A model generated the notes under the pieces. It had not been told where the DNA came from, searched no databases, and saw only the letters and a list, made by a program, of their open reading frames with translations. This document shows positions 5,756-12,156 of a stretch of 64,000 bases of DNA, piece by piece. The position numbers were made by a program, and so were the translations under genes. This stretch comes from Gemmatimonadota bacterium (GTDB lineage Bacteria > Gemmatimonadota > Gemmatimonadetes > Palauibacterales > Palauibacteraceae): the NCBI GenBank assembly GCA_963666735.1, contig OY762926.1, positions 352,001 through 416,000 on the forward strand. The letters are read 5' to 3'. Numbering within the stretch: the stretch's first letter is position 1; each line of letters starts with the position of its first letter.

Positions 5756-6079
5756 ATGACCGAGATCGCGCTCTTCTACCAGCGCCCGGGCTGAACGAGT
5801 TGCAAACGCACCCGTGCGGTGTTCGACGAGACCGGCGCGACGATCGCGGAGGAACGATCCGCCACGAAGGCTCCGCTGACGGATGACGACGTGCGGGCGC
5901 TCCTGGCGACCGCCGAGCGGGTGGTCGTCGCCAGAGGGAGGAGCCGGCGCGATCTGAGTCCCGGGGAAACCGAACTCGACGCGCTGAAGGGGCCCACGGG
6001 GAAGTACCGCGCGCCGATCGTGCTGGCGGGAGCCACGCTTCTGGTCGGCTTCAGCGCCGAGGCGCTCGCCGAACTCTGA
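5756..6079 (+). CDS. ArsC/Spx-like thioredoxin-fold selenoprotein (UxxC; TGA 5792-5794 read as Sec)
   Basis: SD GAGGAG plus ATG 5756; MTEIALFYQRPG-TGA-TSCKRTR continues in frame into GPTGKYRAPIV...LLVGF; TGA occupies the first Cys position of CxxC. Confidence 0.85.
5795..5825 (+). promoter_or_regulatory. Candidate bacterial SECIS hairpin
   Basis: Stem GCACC (5808-5812)/GGTGT (5818-5822), loop CGTGC with G at the second position; loop starts 18 nt after UGA. Confidence 0.55.
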
Positions 6080-6440
6080 AGCCGAAGTCGCCGCGGATCG
6101 TGTGGCCGTCCTGCGCCATGGCTCGCCACATGACCTCGTAGTCGCCGTCCGCGAGCCCCTCGCCCACGTCCAGCACGACGACGCTTGGGTCGTCCTCTTT
6201 CGCGGTCGCCGGTTCCAGGTCGAGGGGTTCGCCTCCCTTCGGCAGGAGCCGGACCGACGTCCCGGCCATCTGCGGGGCCTGCGTGAACCACAGCGTGACC
6301 GTCTCGGGGCTGGCCGCCACCGTCTCATCCTTCTTCGGAGACGACTCCTTGAGAGCGAGGTGAGCGCAGACGTAGATGCCCGCCGTCGCCAGCACGGCGG
6401 TCGCTACGACGACGGCCCGGTTTCGGATCCACCTGGTCAT
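6051..6440 (-). CDS. copC: Copper resistance protein CopC
   Basis: Signal peptide followed by N-terminal His (A-HLALKESSP); YEVMWRAMAQDGH with the DGH Cu(II) motif. Confidence 0.85.
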   Translation of the reverse strand: MTRWIRNRAVVVATAVLATAGIYVCAHLALKESSPKKDETVAASPETVTLWFTQAPQMAGTSVRLLPKGGEPLDLEPATAKEDDPSVVVLDVGEGLADGDYEVMWRAMAQDGHTIRGDFGFRVRRAPRR

Positions 6441-6685
6441 TGAACTGCCCATCGAACTTCGCCCCGGTCCTGGTGCGGTCCTGTGTCGATCCGGGGTCGG
6501 ACGATGGCGCATCCATCGCCCGCCCACCGAATGCACCTTCCAAATGCTATCCGTTTAGCTGTGCGCGGCAACCGCCCCGGGCCGGAAAGGGTTGCCAGCT
6601 TGACTCGCCATGCCACCTGACTCAGCTTGATGCCCTGATCCGGAGTGCCCCGCGACGGCATTCCAAATACTCTGGCGGCATAGCC

Positions 6686-7042
6686 GTGAAGCCGATTTCT
6701 CCTCGAAAGCCTAAGGATCTTCGCCAGCGCGGTGTGCTGGCCATCGTCCTCCTTCAGGCCGTGGCGTTCGCCGTCCTGCCGGCGGCGGATGCGGTGCTTG
6801 AAGCCGGCGCATCGAGCACCGTCGCGCACTTCGAAGGGGAACACAGCGAGCACTGCGACAGCGGGCACAGCCACCTGCTGTGCCAGTTGTCTCGCACGGT
6901 GTCACTGGGGTTCCCCCCCCTGATACCGATCGATCTGCCGCTGGCATTCGAAGCCAGCCCCGACACTCCGGCCGCGTCCGCCTGGCATCGCCGCCCGATT
7001 CCGTCCGGCGGGAGCGGTCCCAGGGCCCCTCCTCGAGCCTGA
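6686..7042 (+). CDS. DUF2946/CruR-like leader protein with C-terminal RAPP ribosome-arrest motif
   Basis: N-terminal hydrophobic segment; His/Cys cluster HFEGEHSEHCDSGHSHLLC; Pro-rich tail ending GPRAPPRA; directly upstream of a TonB-dependent receptor; start codon uncertain. Confidence 0.7.
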   Translation: MKPISPRKPKDLRQRGVLAIVLLQAVAFAVLPAADAVLEAGASSTVAHFEGEHSEHCDSGHSHLLCQLSRTVSLGFPPLIPIDLPLAFEASPDTPAASAWHRRPIPSGGSGPRAPPRA

Positions 7043-7142
7043 CCCGCTGCCGGGCAAGATCCGCCCCGGAAGCCCCCGACCGCCCCATGGGCGGCGGATC
7101 GCAAGTCTCCCGAAACACACGTTACCGACTGAAGCATTTCAG

Positions 7143-7190
7143 CGAGACACGCCGCGCTTCTCCAGCAGGAGCGGTCATCGGCGGGTCTCG
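7143..7190 (+). promoter_or_regulatory. Long stem-loop immediately 5' of the receptor RBS
   Basis: Nested pairings CGAGAC/GTCTCG, CGCCG/CGGCG and CGCTTCT/AGGAGCG; AAAGG follows at 7191. Confidence 0.5.
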
Positions 7191-7201
7191 AAAGGCTGTG
7201 C

Positions 7202-9418
7202 ATGGCGATAAGGCGTCTGGCCGGTCTCATCCCGGCCGTCCTGGCAATGGCTCTTGGAGCCGTCGGTTTGTCCGCGCAGGTTGAGCACGCGGGCGAGATC
7301 GAGGGTGTCGTGCGCGATGTCGATTCCAAAGAGCCTCTCGCCGGCGCCCTGGTCTCCGTCGCGGCGCCGGGTGTGAGGGCGGTCTCGCATGGCGATGGCA
7401 CGTTTCACATTCCGGTGCCGGGTTTGCGCGTGTACACGGTGCGGGTGGAACGCCTGGGCTACCGCACGGTCTCGCTGGAAGTGGATGCGTCGAGGGGCGA
7501 GATCGTGGACGTGGAGATGGAAGCCAATCCCATCTCCCTGCCGGATCTCGTGGTCACCGGGTCGGTTGTGGCGCGCGCGGTCAACGAAGTGTTGCGCCCA
7601 ACCAGCGTATTCGCGGGAGAAGACCTGCAACGCCGCCTGACCGGAACTCTGGCCGAAACGCTGTCCTCCGAGCCCGGCCTCGCGGTGACCAGCATGGGAC
7701 CGGGCTCGGCGCACCCGGTGATCCGGGGCCTGAGCGGAGACCGCATCCTGATGCTCGAGGACGGGGAACGGGTCGGGGACGAGTTTGCGAGCGGCCCGGA
7801 CCACGCGACCGCGCTCGACGCATCGTCGGCGCGCCGCGTCGAGGTCATCCGCGGACCGGGCGCGATCCTCTACGGCAGCAACGCGCTGGGGGGCGTCATC
7901 AACGTCGTCCGCGATGACGTACCCTCATCCGTGCCGCACCATCTTACGGGCGCGTTCACCCTTCAGGGAGAGAGCGTCAGCAACGCAGCCGGCGGAAGCC
8001 TCAATCTCACGGTTGGCCTCACGGACCACATTCCCGTGCGGCTGGAACTCTCGCGTCGCGGGAGCGGCGACCTGAAGACCCCGGTCGGACTCCTGGAGAA
8101 TACGAATACCGATACGCGGGAGATTTCCGGCGGAACCTCGTGGGTGGACGACTGGGGCCATGCCGGCGCGACCTTCCGGTACTACGGCAACGACTACGGC
8201 ATCCCCGGAGGATTCGTCGGAGGTCACGAGGCCGGGGTTCGCGTCGAGATGGAGCGGACCGCGACCAGACTGCGCAGCGTGCTGCGGCCACGAACGGTCT
8301 TCGAGAGCATCGAGATCGACGCGGGACACACCTGGTACGAGCACAGAGAGATCGAGCCTCCCGACATTCCGGGAACGCTCTTCGAGCGCCGGACGGCGAG
8401 CGGCGAGATCCTGGCCCGCCACGGCGGCTGGGGCCCCTTCTCCTCGGGAGCGGTGGGGACGCGGGGTTCCCGGGAAGACCTCGGATTCGGGGGCGCGCTC
8501 TTCACTCCGAACTCCACGCACACGTCCTTTGCCGTATTCGCGCTGGAAGAGGTCGACCTGAATCCGATACGCCTGGAAGCGGGCCTTCGCTACGACTGGG
8601 CACAGGTGCGGCCCGACCGCGAGGACCCCTCGTCCGATATCGGCCACATCCGGGCGAGGTCGTTTCGCGCGGCGTCGGGCTCCCTGGGGGCCTTGGCACA
8701 GCTGACGCGGAACTTCACGGTGGGCGCTACCATCGCCCGGGCCTTCCGCACCCCCAGCGTCAACGAGCTGTTCTCGGAGGGTCCCCATCTGGCAGCCTAT
8801 GCCTTCGAGGTGGGGAACCCGTCGCTCGATATGGAACGCGGGACCGGCCTCGACCTGTTCGTCCGGATCACCGGCGACCGGCTGAACGCCGAGGTGACGT
8901 GGTTCCGCAACGCCATTACCGACTACGTCTTCCCACTCGAAACCGGAGAGCTGAGCCGCGTGCGGCTGCCGATCTTCCAGTTCCAGGGCGAAGACGCGGT
9001 GCTCACCGGATTCGAGAGCGCGCTCGAGTGGGCGGCGGTCGGCGATCTGACCTTGGAGGCGGTGGCTTCGTACGTTCAGGGCCGGATCAGGGCAACCGAC
9101 GAGCCGCTGCCCCTGATCCCGCCGCTGCAGGGGCGTTTCGCCGTCGGCTACGCGCCTCGCGACTGGTTCGTCGAAGCCGAAACTCGAGTTGCGGCTCGTC
9201 AGGATCGGACGGGGGCCTTCGAAGGCCCGACCGATGGGTATGCCGTTTTCGATCTCTCCGCCGGCATGCGGATCACGGTCATGGGGCGGCTGAACGTGAT
9301 CACGGTGCGGGGAGAGAACCTTGGCAATGCGGTATACAGAAACCACCTGTCGCGCGTGAAGGAGATCATGCCCCAGGCGGGGCGATCCATCAGCGTGGCA
9401 TATCGCGTCGTTTTCTAG
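7202..9418 (+). CDS. TonB-dependent receptor, ZnuD-like metal uptake type
   Basis: Signal peptide, carboxypeptidase-regulatory-like domain, plug motif VEVIRGPGAILYGSNALGGVINV, GPDHA, GPHLA, YRNHLS, terminal Phe. Confidence 0.9.
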   Translation: MAIRRLAGLIPAVLAMALGAVGLSAQVEHAGEIEGVVRDVDSKEPLAGALVSVAAPGVRAVSHGDGTFHIPVPGLRVYTVRVERLGYRTVSLEVDASRGEIVDVEMEANPISLPDLVVTGSVVARAVNEVLRPTSVFAGEDLQRRLTGTLAETLSSEPGLAVTSMGPGSAHPVIRGLSGDRILMLEDGERVGDEFASGPDHATALDASSARRVEVIRGPGAILYGSNALGGVINVVRDDVPSSVPHHLTGAFTLQGESVSNAAGGSLNLTVGLTDHIPVRLELSRRGSGDLKTPVGLLENTNTDTREISGGTSWVDDWGHAGATFRYYGNDYGIPGGFVGGHEAGVRVEMERTATRLRSVLRPRTVFESIEIDAGHTWYEHREIEPPDIPGTLFERRTASGEILARHGGWGPFSSGAVGTRGSREDLGFGGALFTPNSTHTSFAVFALEEVDLNPIRLEAGLRYDWAQVRPDREDPSSDIGHIRARSFRAASGSLGALAQLTRNFTVGATIARAFRTPSVNELFSEGPHLAAYAFEVGNPSLDMERGTGLDLFVRITGDRLNAEVTWFRNAITDYVFPLETGELSRVRLPIFQFQGEDAVLTGFESALEWAAVGDLTLEAVASYVQGRIRATDEPLPLIPPLQGRFAVGYAPRDWFVEAETRVAARQDRTGAFEGPTDGYAVFDLSAGMRITVMGRLNVITVRGENLGNAVYRNHLSRVKEIMPQAGRSISVAYRVVF

Positions 9419-9446
9419 AACACACAACACAACGAGGTGAGGAGCA

Positions 9447-9944
9447 ATGAGACACTTCCAGCCGAAACTCCCACTTGCCCTGCTGACCGCGGGACTCCTG
9501 GTGCTTTCCGCCTGCGGCGACAGCGCCACGGAACCGGACGATCACGATGATGACGACGATCACGCCGGAGAGGTCGAGGGCCTGACGTTGACCCTGAGCG
9601 GCCAGACCGTTGCGGCCTACGATGGAGACGATGGAGCCTGGACCGGAGAACTGGAGGTCGAGCCCGGCGAGGAAACGGCCCACATCTCCGTGCAGTTCGT
9701 GGACCACAACGGGCAGGCGGTGGCGCTCGACGACAACTACTACCTGGAAGTGGAGGTCGAGGATGAATCCGTCGCCGAATTCGAGCAGGACACGCCCGGT
9801 GAGTTCGGGGGACACCTGCACGGAGGGATGGAGGGAGATACCGAGATCACCTTCAGCCTGATGCACGGCGCGGTCGGATCGGGACACGCGGATTTCGTGA
9901 CTGCACCGTTGCACGTGCATGTGCACGAGCACGACGACGGCTAG
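9447..9944 (+). CDS. His/Asp-rich putative metal-binding lipoprotein
   Basis: SD GAGGAG; lipobox LSAC; DDHDDDDDH, GHLHG, MHG..GHADF and HVHVHEH segments. Confidence 0.8.
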   Translation: MRHFQPKLPLALLTAGLLVLSACGDSATEPDDHDDDDDHAGEVEGLTLTLSGQTVAAYDGDDGAWTGELEVEPGEETAHISVQFVDHNGQAVALDDNYYLEVEVEDESVAEFEQDTPGEFGGHLHGGMEGDTEITFSLMHGAVGSGHADFVTAPLHVHVHEHDDG

Positions 9945-9970
9945 CGTCTCAGCCCGTCTCATGAGTCCCG

Positions 9971-10006
9971 CAAGCCCTCCCCGGAGCGATTTCCGGGGAG
10001 GGTTTG
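9971..10006 (+). terminator. Intrinsic terminator-like hairpin
   Basis: CAAGCCCTCCCCGGA / TCCGGGGAGGGTTTG 15-bp stem after the lipoprotein gene. Confidence 0.7.
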
Positions 10007-10140
10007 TCCGTTGTCGCGAGCAAGGTTTACGCGCGGTCCCCGTCGCTTGACCGCCGGATTGGGCGAGGCTCATGTTCAGCGCCCGTGTGCCGCCGCCCGT
10101 CCGCGGCCGCGTCGACTGTCTACCGTGAACCGAGGTCTCG

Positions 10141-12156
10141 ATGAGAACAGCACGCGCCACAGCCCCCGCGCCGCCGTCCGTGTTCCGCCGTTTTCCACTC
10201 CTGCTCGTGCTCGGCTTCGCCGTTGCGGGCTGCGCGGAAGGCGGCGAGAGCGTAGCCGACCATGCCGACTGGAAGCACATCGCCGGCAACGACATGGGGC
10301 AGCGCTACTCGTCCCTCGACCAGATCGATCCGGAGAACTTCGAGAGCATCGAGGTGGCCTGGGTCTGGGAGGGATCCGACTACCCGGCCGTGAACGCCCG
10401 CGCCACGCCGATCTACGTGGACGGGATGCTGATCTCGGTGGCGGGCGAGAAGCGGCACACCTACGCGATCGACGCGGGCACGGGGGAGAGGGTCTGGGAG
10501 TACGTCGAGCCCGAGACCTTCCGCTGGGAGTACTCGATGCGGAAGAACCACGGGAAGGGCGTCGCGTACGGCGAGATCGACGGTCGCGCGGTCGTCTACA
10601 TGGCGAGTCCCGCCTTCTTCCTGCACGCGCTGTGGGCCGACACGGGCGAACACGTGGAGGGCTTCGGCGGTCCCGTCGGCGTCCCGGGCTTCCCGGAGTC
10701 GGGGGTCGTCGACCTGCTCGCGGGGCTCGGGCACGAGTTCGACCCGTACCACGGCATTCCGCTCGAGACCGGCTACATCACGAGTTCGTCCCCTCCGATC
10801 GTCGTAAACGGCGTGATCGTGATCGGGAACTCCGCCGAGCAGGGCTACAACCAGTCGCGGCGCGAGAACGTGCCGGGCGACATCCTCGGCTACGACGCGC
10901 GCACGGGCGACTTCATGTGGAAGTTCAACGTCCTCCCGGGACCCGGCGAGTTCGGCCACGAGACGTGGGAGAACGACGCCTGGGAGTGGACGGGCGACAT
11001 CTCGTCGTGGGCGCCGCTCTCCGCGGACGAGGAGCGGGGCATCGTCTACATCCCGACCAACGGGGCCACGATGGACTTTTGGGGCGGTTTCCGGCCGGGA
11101 GACAACCTGTTCTCGACGAGCCTGATCGCGCTCGATGTGCAGACGGGAGAGCGGGTTTGGCACTATCAGCTCGTGCACCACGACATATGGAACTACGACA
11201 CGCCGCAGATCCCCGTGCTGATGGACGTGACGGTGGATGGCGAGGATGTGCCGGCGGTCGTGCAGGTCACGAAGCAGGCCTTCGCGTACGCCTTCAACCG
11301 GGAGACGGGCGAGCCGATCTGGCCGATCGAGGAGCGGCCGGTGCCGGAGGGGCTCATGCCGGGCGAGGCGCTTTCGCCGACGCAGCCGTTCCCGACCAGG
11401 CCGGCGCCGTACGACATGCAGGGGCTGACGCACGACGACCTGATCGACTTCACGCCGGAGTTGCGGGAAGCCGCGATCGAAGCCCTCGACGACTACGTGA
11501 TCGGCCCGCTGTTCACGCCCCCGCTTCACCGGGACAACGACCTCGGCAAGGTGGCGTCGATGTGGTGTCCGGGAGATGTGGGAGGGACGAACATCGACGG
11601 GACGCCGGCGGCGGACCCGGAGACGGGGATCCTGTACGTGACGTCGCAGAAGGGGTGCGGGTCGCGGATCATGGTGCCGGGGGAGGAGCGCGACGCGCGG
11701 GAGCCGGCGCAGACGGGGACGACGATCACGAAGTTCGCGGTCGGGGGGTTCGCGGGCGTCCGGCGGGTGCAGGGTCTTCCGCTCTTCAAGCCGCCGTACA
11801 GCCGGATCACGGCGATCGACATGAACACGGGCGAGCACCTGTGGTGGATTCCGGTGGGCGACACGCCGAACAGCGTGCTCGAGCACGACGCGCTCCAGGG
11901 CATGGACGTCCCGAACACGGGCACGGGGCGGCAGGCGGCGCAGATCGTCACGAGCACCCTGCTCATGTACACGGGGGAGGGGAGCGACGGGACCTCCTAC
12001 CTGTTCGCCGTGGACAAGGCGACGGGCGAACGGCTGGGGCAGGTCGAGCTTCCGGCGCAGCCGCGGTACGGGATGATGACGTACATGCACGAAGGCAGGC
12101 AGCATGTGGTGATCCAGGCTCCCAACACGCTGATGGCGCTGCGTCTCGCCGACTGA
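10141..12156 (+). CDS. PQQ-dependent dehydrogenase (quinoprotein glucose DH-like), lipoprotein
   Basis: RYSSLDQID, WHYQLVHHDIWNYD and KPPYSRITAIDMNTGEHLW motifs; VAGC lipobox. Confidence 0.9.
   Translation: MRTARATAPAPPSVFRRFPLLLVLGFAVAGCAEGGESVADHADWKHIAGNDMGQRYSSLDQIDPENFESIEVAWVWEGSDYPAVNARATPIYVDGMLISVAGEKRHTYAIDAGTGERVWEYVEPETFRWEYSMRKNHGKGVAYGEIDGRAVVYMASPAFFLHALWADTGEHVEGFGGPVGVPGFPESGVVDLLAGLGHEFDPYHGIPLETGYITSSSPPIVVNGVIVIGNSAEQGYNQSRRENVPGDILGYDARTGDFMWKFNVLPGPGEFGHETWENDAWEWTGDISSWAPLSADEERGIVYIPTNGATMDFWGGFRPGDNLFSTSLIALDVQTGERVWHYQLVHHDIWNYDTPQIPVLMDVTVDGEDVPAVVQVTKQAFAYAFNRETGEPIWPIEERPVPEGLMPGEALSPTQPFPTRPAPYDMQGLTHDDLIDFTPELREAAIEALDDYVIGPLFTPPLHRDNDLGKVASMWCPGDVGGTNIDGTPAADPETGILYVTSQKGCGSRIMVPGEERDAREPAQTGTTITKFAVGGFAGVRRVQGLPLFKPPYSRITAIDMNTGEHLWWIPVGDTPNSVLEHDALQGMDVPNTGTGRQAAQIVTSTLLMYTGEGSDGTSYLFAVDKATGERLGQVELPAQPRYGMMTYMHEGRQHVVIQAPNTLMALRLAD

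Follow-up and report, generated by a model that had tools for sequence, protein, structure and literature searches.

A candidate zinc-sensing RAPP arrest leader in front of a ZnuD-like receptor gene in Gemmatimonadota

Does the small open reading frame (ORF) that precedes a TonB-dependent receptor gene in a Gemmatimonadota bacterium encode a peptide that arrests its own ribosome, and, if so, to which metal does it respond? We addressed this question in a 64,000-nucleotide stretch of DNA (the window) and in related loci. In the literature searched, an arrest-leader metal switch has so far been demonstrated only for copper. CruR (Bp2923; DUF2946/PF11162) of Bordetella pertussis is a copper leader that works through Rho, with a 162-nt spacer and ~45 residues between its CxxC and its RAPP (PMC9426467), and the RAPP of CruR arrests in vitro (PMC12992588). 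CutF of Rhodobacter capsulatus stalls on copper and, through the melting of a Shine-Dalgarno (SD) hairpin, turns on a detoxifying oxidase (PMC9973294; bioRxiv 10.1101/2025.02.05.636593). Non-copper CutF-like members, with His-only clusters and located upstream of HupE/UreJ, have already been predicted (PMC9973294), and in Caulobacter a DUF2946 gene, not studied there as an arrest peptide, heads a Zur-activated zinc efflux operon (PMC4176598). A genome-wide survey lists RAPP/RGPP small proteins before TonB-dependent receptors across Gram-negative bacteria; copper is the only metal that we saw assigned in it, and the words 'zinc' and 'Gemmatimonad' are absent from its main text (PMC12992588). 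Roy et al. pointed out that neither copper nor zinc has a known riboswitch, and showed that in the case of copper an arrest-peptide leader takes that place (PMC9426467). We found no demonstrated zinc-sensing arrest leader in the literature searched, a search with most subscription journals outside its scope. A zinc-sensing version would extend the arrest-peptide principle from copper to zinc, and would be a protein counterpart of the zinc riboswitch, which has not been found.

A constrained leader ORF at the head of the operon

The leader ORF (6686..7042, + strand) starts with GTG, stops with TGA and encodes 118 residues. Its translation bore out the features that an earlier note on this DNA had listed, namely a ~118-aa ORF with a hydrophobic segment, a Pro-rich tail and RAPP at 7022-7033: the hydrophobic stretch GVLAIVLLQAVAFAVL is followed by HFEGEHSEHCDSGHSHLLC and then by the Pro-rich tail, in which R113-P116 form the RAPP arrest motif (7022..7033, +; AGG GCC CCT CCT), two codons before the stop. 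We predicted a Sec signal peptide (6686..6793, +) on the basis of sequence pattern, family conservation and a model helix. The pattern consists of a basic N-region, hydrophobic residues 16-31 and a P-A-A-D-A cleavage region at residues 32-36, where P32, D35 and A36 recur in 121, 134 and 119 of 143 family members, respectively. A metal site was predicted at residues 48-70 (6827..6895, +) with H48, E50, (C57), H61, H63 and C66, while S69 occupies the position of the second Cys in most family members. The AF2 model of the leader (pTM 0.38) contained a signal helix at residues 12-42, a short helix at 63-73 and an unstructured tail. The genome holds 172 stop-delimited frames that end in R[AG]PP, and the leader was the only one to combine this ending with a correctly spaced metal motif and a hydrophobic segment; the combination of motifs is more than chance.

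We used the receptor as query against 61 related genomes and recovered 20 loci at 86% identity or above, the window included. The leader ORF was intact in 18 of these (window counted); of the other two, L005 lies at a contig edge and L020 carries deletions. Among the 18 orthologs, which are close kin so that all selection figures are descriptive, dN/dS was 0.086 over GHSHLLCQLSRTV and 0.087 over RRP..RAPP, 0.48 in the hydrophobic part and 0.92 in the linker, and the two shifted forward frames gave 1.03 and 1.05. There were 39 invariant leader columns, 29 of which vary synonymously. Conservation of RAPP in orthologous loci, a check that the earlier note had named, was complete: the motif was invariant near the C-terminus of all 18 intact orthologs, with synonymous changes. 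The linker from C66 to R113 was 46 residues in every ortholog, all indels lay upstream of it, and 43 residues separate position 69 from RAPP in the window leader. The fixed linker length together with the two motifs of low dN/dS indicates that the motifs are held at a fixed distance. We conclude that the GHSHLLC region and RAPP of the leader are under purifying selection and that the ORF is real.

Individual residues fared differently. Three of the five histidines of the cluster noted earlier (H48, H61 and H63) were invariant in the 18 orthologs and the other two were not. Cys57 was kept in 7 and lost in 11, and the second Cys of CxxC was absent from all 18, the window reading C66-Q-L-S69. The use of AGG for the RAPP Arg, to which the earlier note drew attention, is correct for the window, but the codon itself is not conserved (AGG in 6, AGA in 9 and CGA in 3 orthologs). 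We therefore rejected AGG as a special codon and retained rare Arg codons as a class, since all three are rare in this genome.

The leader is the first gene before a 159-nt spacer and a transporter gene, the gene upstream is divergent, and promoter-like hexamers are conserved. The predicted promoter (6600..6628, +) consists of TTGACT (6600-6605), 17 nt and CAGCTT (6623-6628); both hexamers were conserved above their surroundings in an alignment of 18 orthologous upstream regions, and a strict sigma-70 scan did not call this promoter. From sequence and ortholog alignment, the 5' leader region (6642..6679, +) contains a predicted hairpin, GGAGTGCC/GGCATTCC, at 6642-6664 upstream of the leader ORF and a weak SD-like TGGCGG (6674-6679). 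The intergenic region behind the leader (7043..7201, +; 159 nt) has predicted hairpins, a C-rich stretch, a hairpin closing 7143-7190 and an SD-like AAAGG (7191-7195), and its length was 154-161 nt in 17 of 18 orthologs. Behind the receptor gene lies a gene for a His/Asp-rich predicted lipoprotein of 165 aa (9447..9944, +) with no Pfam family, which is probably the operon's third gene; it followed the receptor in 19 of the 20 orthologous loci and did so in 24 of the 39 family loci where a receptor match was present. Unnamed clusters of look-alike proteins occur in Gemmatimonadota and Balneolota (Atlas), and the lipoprotein is a candidate periplasmic zinc acceptor.

The divergent gene is copC-like (6051..6536, - strand; PF04234, E 2e-20) and encodes a copper-binding periplasmic protein. 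It was found in 18 of the 20 orthologous loci of the genus; among loci L053-L142, with 1-1.5 kb upstream inspected in each, it was present only in six from this genus. The copC gene probably lies outside the regulated unit. It is single copy in the genome by tblastn, and there was no copD among the genes that neighbour it.

The receptor, the leader family and its targets

The TonB-dependent receptor that the earlier note had placed downstream starts 159 nt behind the leader (7202..9418, +; 738 aa, no Cys). Its description as ZnuD-like stood up: ZnuD was the best solved match of the window receptor alone, and the receptor profile scored 356 bits on ZnuD, 182 on PhuR and 141 on OprC. Against NCBIfam NF038289 the receptor reached 210 bits, below the cut-off of 950 but still the best of 27 families. 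The zinc ligands of Neisseria meningitidis ZnuD are Asp99, His100, Glu340 and His499 (PDB 4RDR; PMC4557270), and D200, H201, E383 and H529 of the window receptor align with them, so that all four high-affinity ligands are kept in the alignment. Unlike ZnuD, the window receptor has an extra N-terminal carboxypeptidase-regulatory-like domain and, where aligned, no clear counterpart of the His-rich loop 3 clusters. The tetrad may also serve other divalent ions, ZnuD being the only solved member of the group.

A search of the leader ORF against Pfam and NCBIfam returned nothing over threshold, PF11162 included. We built a family profile from the leader ORF and 51 close homologs, and the search with it returned 259 cluster representatives at E ≤0.001. 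The labels of close homologs in public records read Candidatus Palauibacter or Gemmatimonadales, and the profile matches 242 of 401 Gemmatimonadota genomes, a tally that takes in one unpublished genome (G212), which enters no other result. The family alignment comprised 143 sequences, with six partial or over-long matches and most close orthologs left out. H48 was present in 142 of them, E50 in 135, C57 in 139, H61 in 141, H63 in 111, C66 in 142 and R70 in 137, and R-x-P-P in all 143; members were picked by likeness to the query, so part of this conservation is built in. The comparison with DUF2946 that the earlier note had suggested was positive for the relatives and negative for the leader ORF itself: 55 of the 143 matched PF11162 weakly (E up to 1, best 1.7e-4), and the next Pfam family matched at most 4. 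The proposed likeness to CruR and DUF2946 is thus borne out at the level of the family, and by its profile matches the leader belongs to a remote DUF2946-like family. The distance from the second-Cys position to RAPP is 42-47 residues in the family.

Cys66 aligned as the first Cys of the family motif C-Q-x-C, and position 69 was Cys in 89 of 143 members and Ser in the window. The earlier view that HxxC plus a His cluster had replaced CxxC has to be given up: the second Cys was lost, and H48, H61 and H63 occur also in members with CxxC, which makes the histidines of the family ancestral in this alignment. We computed a quick tree, leaving out receptors of <600 aa, with long N-runs or of a second class. 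The CxxC leaders sat on deep branches, and most single-Cys leaders fell in one 36-row clade (100% SH-aLRT) with the same receptor tetrad, suggesting that the second Cys was lost without a change in the receptor ligand set. Single-Cys leaders branched from within CxxC leaders whose receptors have the same tetrad; loss of the Cys is therefore not a mark of a changed target or metal, and the leader family as a whole looks zinc-linked.

We chose 60 regions by hand from the 150 matches listed, so as to cover several families; the sampled genomes are kin and not independent observations. The genes behind the 64 leaders in these regions comprised 38 window-type receptors, ~12 receptors of the second class, 11 porin-like/ZnuA/ABC-3 operons and 3 unclear cases. 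The D/E-H-E-H tetrad was complete in 35 of 39 receptors behind family leaders; of the rest, two were masked by N, one was a fragment and one belonged to another class. The 11 operons consist of a porin-like gene with ZnuA and/or an ABC-3 permease, for which the best NCBIfam models were AztC/AztB, below cut-off, and their binding proteins also matched Mn/Fe models weakly. Mn or Fe can likewise be the cargo of cluster A-I ABC systems. In the scanned part of the genes downstream of the 64 leaders we recognised no copper family and no HupE/UreJ, nickel or cobalt gene.

Several further features of these loci were recorded. The porin-like protein is 420-450 aa long and ends in GPHKHE, and its operon encodes a ZnuA/AztC-like binding protein and an ABC-3 permease, with no ATPase gene recognised adjacent (L103, L107, L115, L116, L119, L121, L122, L137, L139, L141 and L142). 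Receptors of the second class (L113, L122-L125, L128-L131, L135, L136 and L140) have many conserved histidines (HIRGQHAEY, NFHN, DLDHDQR) and no solved relative by sequence. Two leader-headed units adjoin in one region at L095, L119, L122 and L137. In the window's genome, which is 94% complete so that absences are provisional, ZnuA and PCuAC were not found. At G000:C1 ~3195000-3196000 lie a 110-aa protein that repeats His-rich units and a membrane protein whose tail is His-rich, ~3 kb from a third receptor with the ZnuD tetrad, which has no leader.

An operator box in sister loci

Receptors of a sister clade, 56-61% identical, had no leader of the window's family. Among 15 sister loci, six had a 10-2-10 palindrome directly upstream, six had a Fur-family gene and the palindrome, and the remaining three had the palindrome (one of them weak) followed by a different CxxC-RAPP leader. 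We built a box matrix from 8 sister sites; of the 26 further loci that surround homologs of the Fur-family regulator, 22 had a site of >15 bits. The box precedes zrgA in 4 loci, in two of these between zrgA and a divergent DUF3299 gene, and MerC-domain genes in 4. Both zrgA and the DUF3299 gene are members of the Vibrio Zur regulon (PMC9817125), and on this ground we read the palindrome as a Zur-type box and the regulator with its box as a candidate Gemmatimonadota Zur regulon. In NCBIfam the regulator does not carry the name Zur, and some of its homologs stand beside a CopD gene or a FecCD-type ABC system. The consensus of the box is about TAATGATAAT-NN-ATTATCATTA (L031-L045, L143-L172; before ZnuD-like receptors, zrgA, DUF3299 and MerC-domain genes).

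When the window was scanned with the sister-clade pattern, the only pattern scanned, the best score in 6000-7250 was 0.2 bits as compared to 38.5 for the one strong site of the genome; in this the locus differs from Zur-controlled ZnuD. No box of >16 bits was found near the 64 family leaders. The genome's only strong box is at G000:C1:2948443-2950340, before a split, truncated sister receptor. The Fur family is represented in the genome by two genes, with Fur and PerR models as their closest, and the sister Fur-family regulator had no match in it at E 1e-25, provisionally in view of the 94% completeness. Leader and operator thus appear to trade places between sister loci. We put forward tentatively that Gemmatimonadota use a nascent-peptide zinc sensor as their main control of zinc uptake, interchangeable with a Zur-type operator in sister loci. 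If this were true, one leader family would, throughout the phylum, stand at the head both of ZnuD-type receptors and of unrelated operons of the porin-ZnuA-permease kind. In this genome, which yielded neither a Zur-like regulator nor ZnuA, outer-membrane uptake would then have the single-Cys leader as its only zinc switch.

A second set of leaders, with HSH...CxxC and then RAPP, stands before receptors with the ZnuD tetrad (L021, L026-L029, L031, L032, L046-L050, L147 and L148) and was not read as the window's family. Some of these leaders lie behind an operator box, which would give two layers of control. In L032, a box-plus-leader receptor operon, genes for an FAD-dependent oxidoreductase and a FeoB-C/Gate-domain protein lie downstream of the lipoprotein gene. 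A link of these two proteins to zinc starvation was not confirmed in the literature search.

Proposed mechanism and alternatives

Like CruR, the window leader is the first gene of its operon, has an export signal and a Cys metal motif ~45 residues before a C-terminal RAPP, and is followed by a ~160-nt spacer and a TonB-dependent importer; the C-rich 3' end and the predicted poor structure are shared as well. Unlike CruR, it has CxxS and three conserved His in place of CxxC and no direct PF11162 match, its target is ZnuD-like and not CrtA/OprC, its third gene encodes a His-rich lipoprotein and not PepSY_TM, and its phylum is Gemmatimonadota. It is therefore a DUF2946/CruR leader by architecture, and not by the CxxC and copper context of the strict type. 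With CutF it shares a Sec signal, a Cys/His metal motif and a Pro-rich stalling tail, as far as the sequence can tell; its target, however, is an importer, and equilibrium folds predict no stall-dependent opening of the SD.

We consider it reasonably probable that the leader is a CruR-type arrest leader that senses zinc, so that synthesis of receptor and lipoprotein would be restricted to times of zinc scarcity. The leader is likely to stall its own ribosome at RAPP, and by analogy with CruR the prolines of RAPP would then occupy the P and A sites. Arrest at this point would separate H61-C66 from the peptidyl-transferase centre by ~50-55 residues and bring them just beyond the tunnel, a placement that follows from the lengths of tunnel and translocon. 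Without metal, the stalled ribosome would sit over the C-rich stretch of mRNA where the ORF ends and keep Rho off, and transcription would reach the receptor. Zn(II) bound by H48/H61/H63/C66 (with C57 or a carboxylate) would fold the nascent chain and relieve the arrest, whereupon Rho would terminate in the 159-nt spacer. The direction, with metal as the off signal, is suggested by the target being an importer. The conserved signal peptide would fit both cytoplasmic sensing, as in CruR, and periplasmic sensing, as in CutF.

The output is the weakest step of this scheme. We rejected a riboswitch, since there was no Rfam match in 5800-10300 (no cobalamin or NiCo riboswitch), and an intrinsic attenuator, since no intrinsic terminator was found in the spacer and a terminator-like match occurred in 6 of 64 family regions, one of them ≤100 nt from the stop. 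The C-over-G excess around RAPP had a family median of 0.28 versus 0.13 in 1782 control gene ends, with the window at the 95th percentile; the signal comes from amino-acid content and a mildly C-rich spacer, as synonymous sites had a C/(C+G) of 0.50 versus 0.49. The gene rho is present in the window's genome. We lean slightly towards Rho, because CruR with its 162-nt spacer works through Rho, the RAPP region is C-rich and rho is present; taken as one share of the zinc reading, Rho-dependent output is possible though doubtful in itself. The rest of that reading is a translational output, rather unlikely when taken singly, in which the leader end would pair with the receptor start region and a stalled or queued ribosome would free the start in a CutF/SecM-like manner. 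A consensus fold paired 7005-7015 with receptor codons 4-7, at least 4 tail-to-start pairs were expected in 13 of 18 orthologs (free folds), and codons G108, S110 and G111 of the leader had no synonymous change in the 18 orthologs. A hairpin just after the stop was also enriched in the family (mean z -1.04, 31% < -1.5) relative to 120 controls (0.0, 7%). On the other hand, compensatory change was seen in only 3 of 59 consensus pairs, the SD is ~160 nt from the stall site, and masking by a stalled ribosome left the opening energy of the start region unlowered in equilibrium folds of the 18 orthologs (11.6 versus 11.7 kcal/mol; 5.7 versus 5.5 for the SD alone and 23.4 versus 23.1 kcal/mol for a wide window). 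An SD-sequestration switch was accordingly not supported.

Zinc is our best guess for the metal, and of the three metals named in the earlier note (Zn, Ni and Co) it is the one that retains specific support. Four observations point to it: the ZnuD tetrad of the receptors, the porin-like/ZnuA/ABC-3 operons behind 11 of the 64 leaders, the lack of a recognised copper family in the downstream genes scanned, and the palindrome that sister receptors share with zrgA. An ordinary copper-responsive relative of CruR, with a receptor that imports Cu(II) or a copper chelate, would agree with the two characterised DUF2946 leaders, both of which sense copper, with the absence from the genome of a receptor over the OprC-type cut-off, and with the receptor CrtA, which uses His without Cys or Met (PMC12914433). 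The main point in its favour is the divergent copC in 18 of 20 orthologous loci, but that adjacency is confined to one genus. The ZnuD tetrad, the ZnuA/ABC-3 and zrgA links and the lack of a recognised copper gene downstream speak against copper, as does the loss of two of the three family cysteines in 11 of 18 orthologs, which disfavours Cu(I) binding, and we regard this reading as improbable. An arrest leader that responds to Ni, Co or Mn, or to more than one divalent ion with no strict selectivity, could draw on a His3-Cys-carboxylate set that could bind several ions and on the weak Mn/Fe matches of the ABC binding proteins. His-rich CutF-like proteins upstream of HupE/UreJ are predicted to bind Ni or Co (PMC9973294). 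The scanned downstream genes included no recognised HupE/UreJ, nickel or cobalt gene, however, there was no cobalamin or NiCo riboswitch, and the best matches were ZnuD, AztC and ZrgA; we therefore hold a leader for these ions to be fairly improbable.

Two further readings would do without metal sensing by the nascent chain. The conserved signal peptide and cleavage region would suit a SecM/ApdP-like secretion monitor, in which pulling by export releases the arrest, receptor synthesis is tuned to Sec capacity and the His/Cys cluster has a structural role; Sec/YidC monitors are known among the RAPP peptides. The targets are metal importers and not Sec or YidC genes, however, and constraint is as strong on the ligand residues as on RAPP, with the distance between the two fixed, which makes a monitor very improbable. 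The least probable reading takes the product for a small metal-binding protein or chaperone that is exported and plays no part in cis regulation. It would explain signal peptide and metal ligands, and relatives are annotated as hypothetical protein, but it leaves aside the first-gene position, the long spacer, R-x-P-P in 143 of 143 members and the rare codons at the motif. The 46-residue linker, kept in length and not in sequence (dN/dS 0.92), and the low pTM of 0.38 with an unstructured tail likewise argue against it.

Two things make the zinc claim specific and testable: across the phylum the family is linked to two unrelated zinc-type uptake systems, and it exchanges with a Zur-type box. 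The leader family would provide a test set, in which CxxC and CxxS alleles occur naturally with one and the same receptor type, loci carry the leader only, the operator only or both, and one leader has been deleted naturally, and it would show how few cysteines such a sensor needs. The natural leader loss is L020 (G033:C42), in which two deletions took the leader start, the ligand region, RAPP and most of the spacer. The lipoprotein gene is also gone from this locus, and the promoter is kept ~130 nt from an intact receptor.
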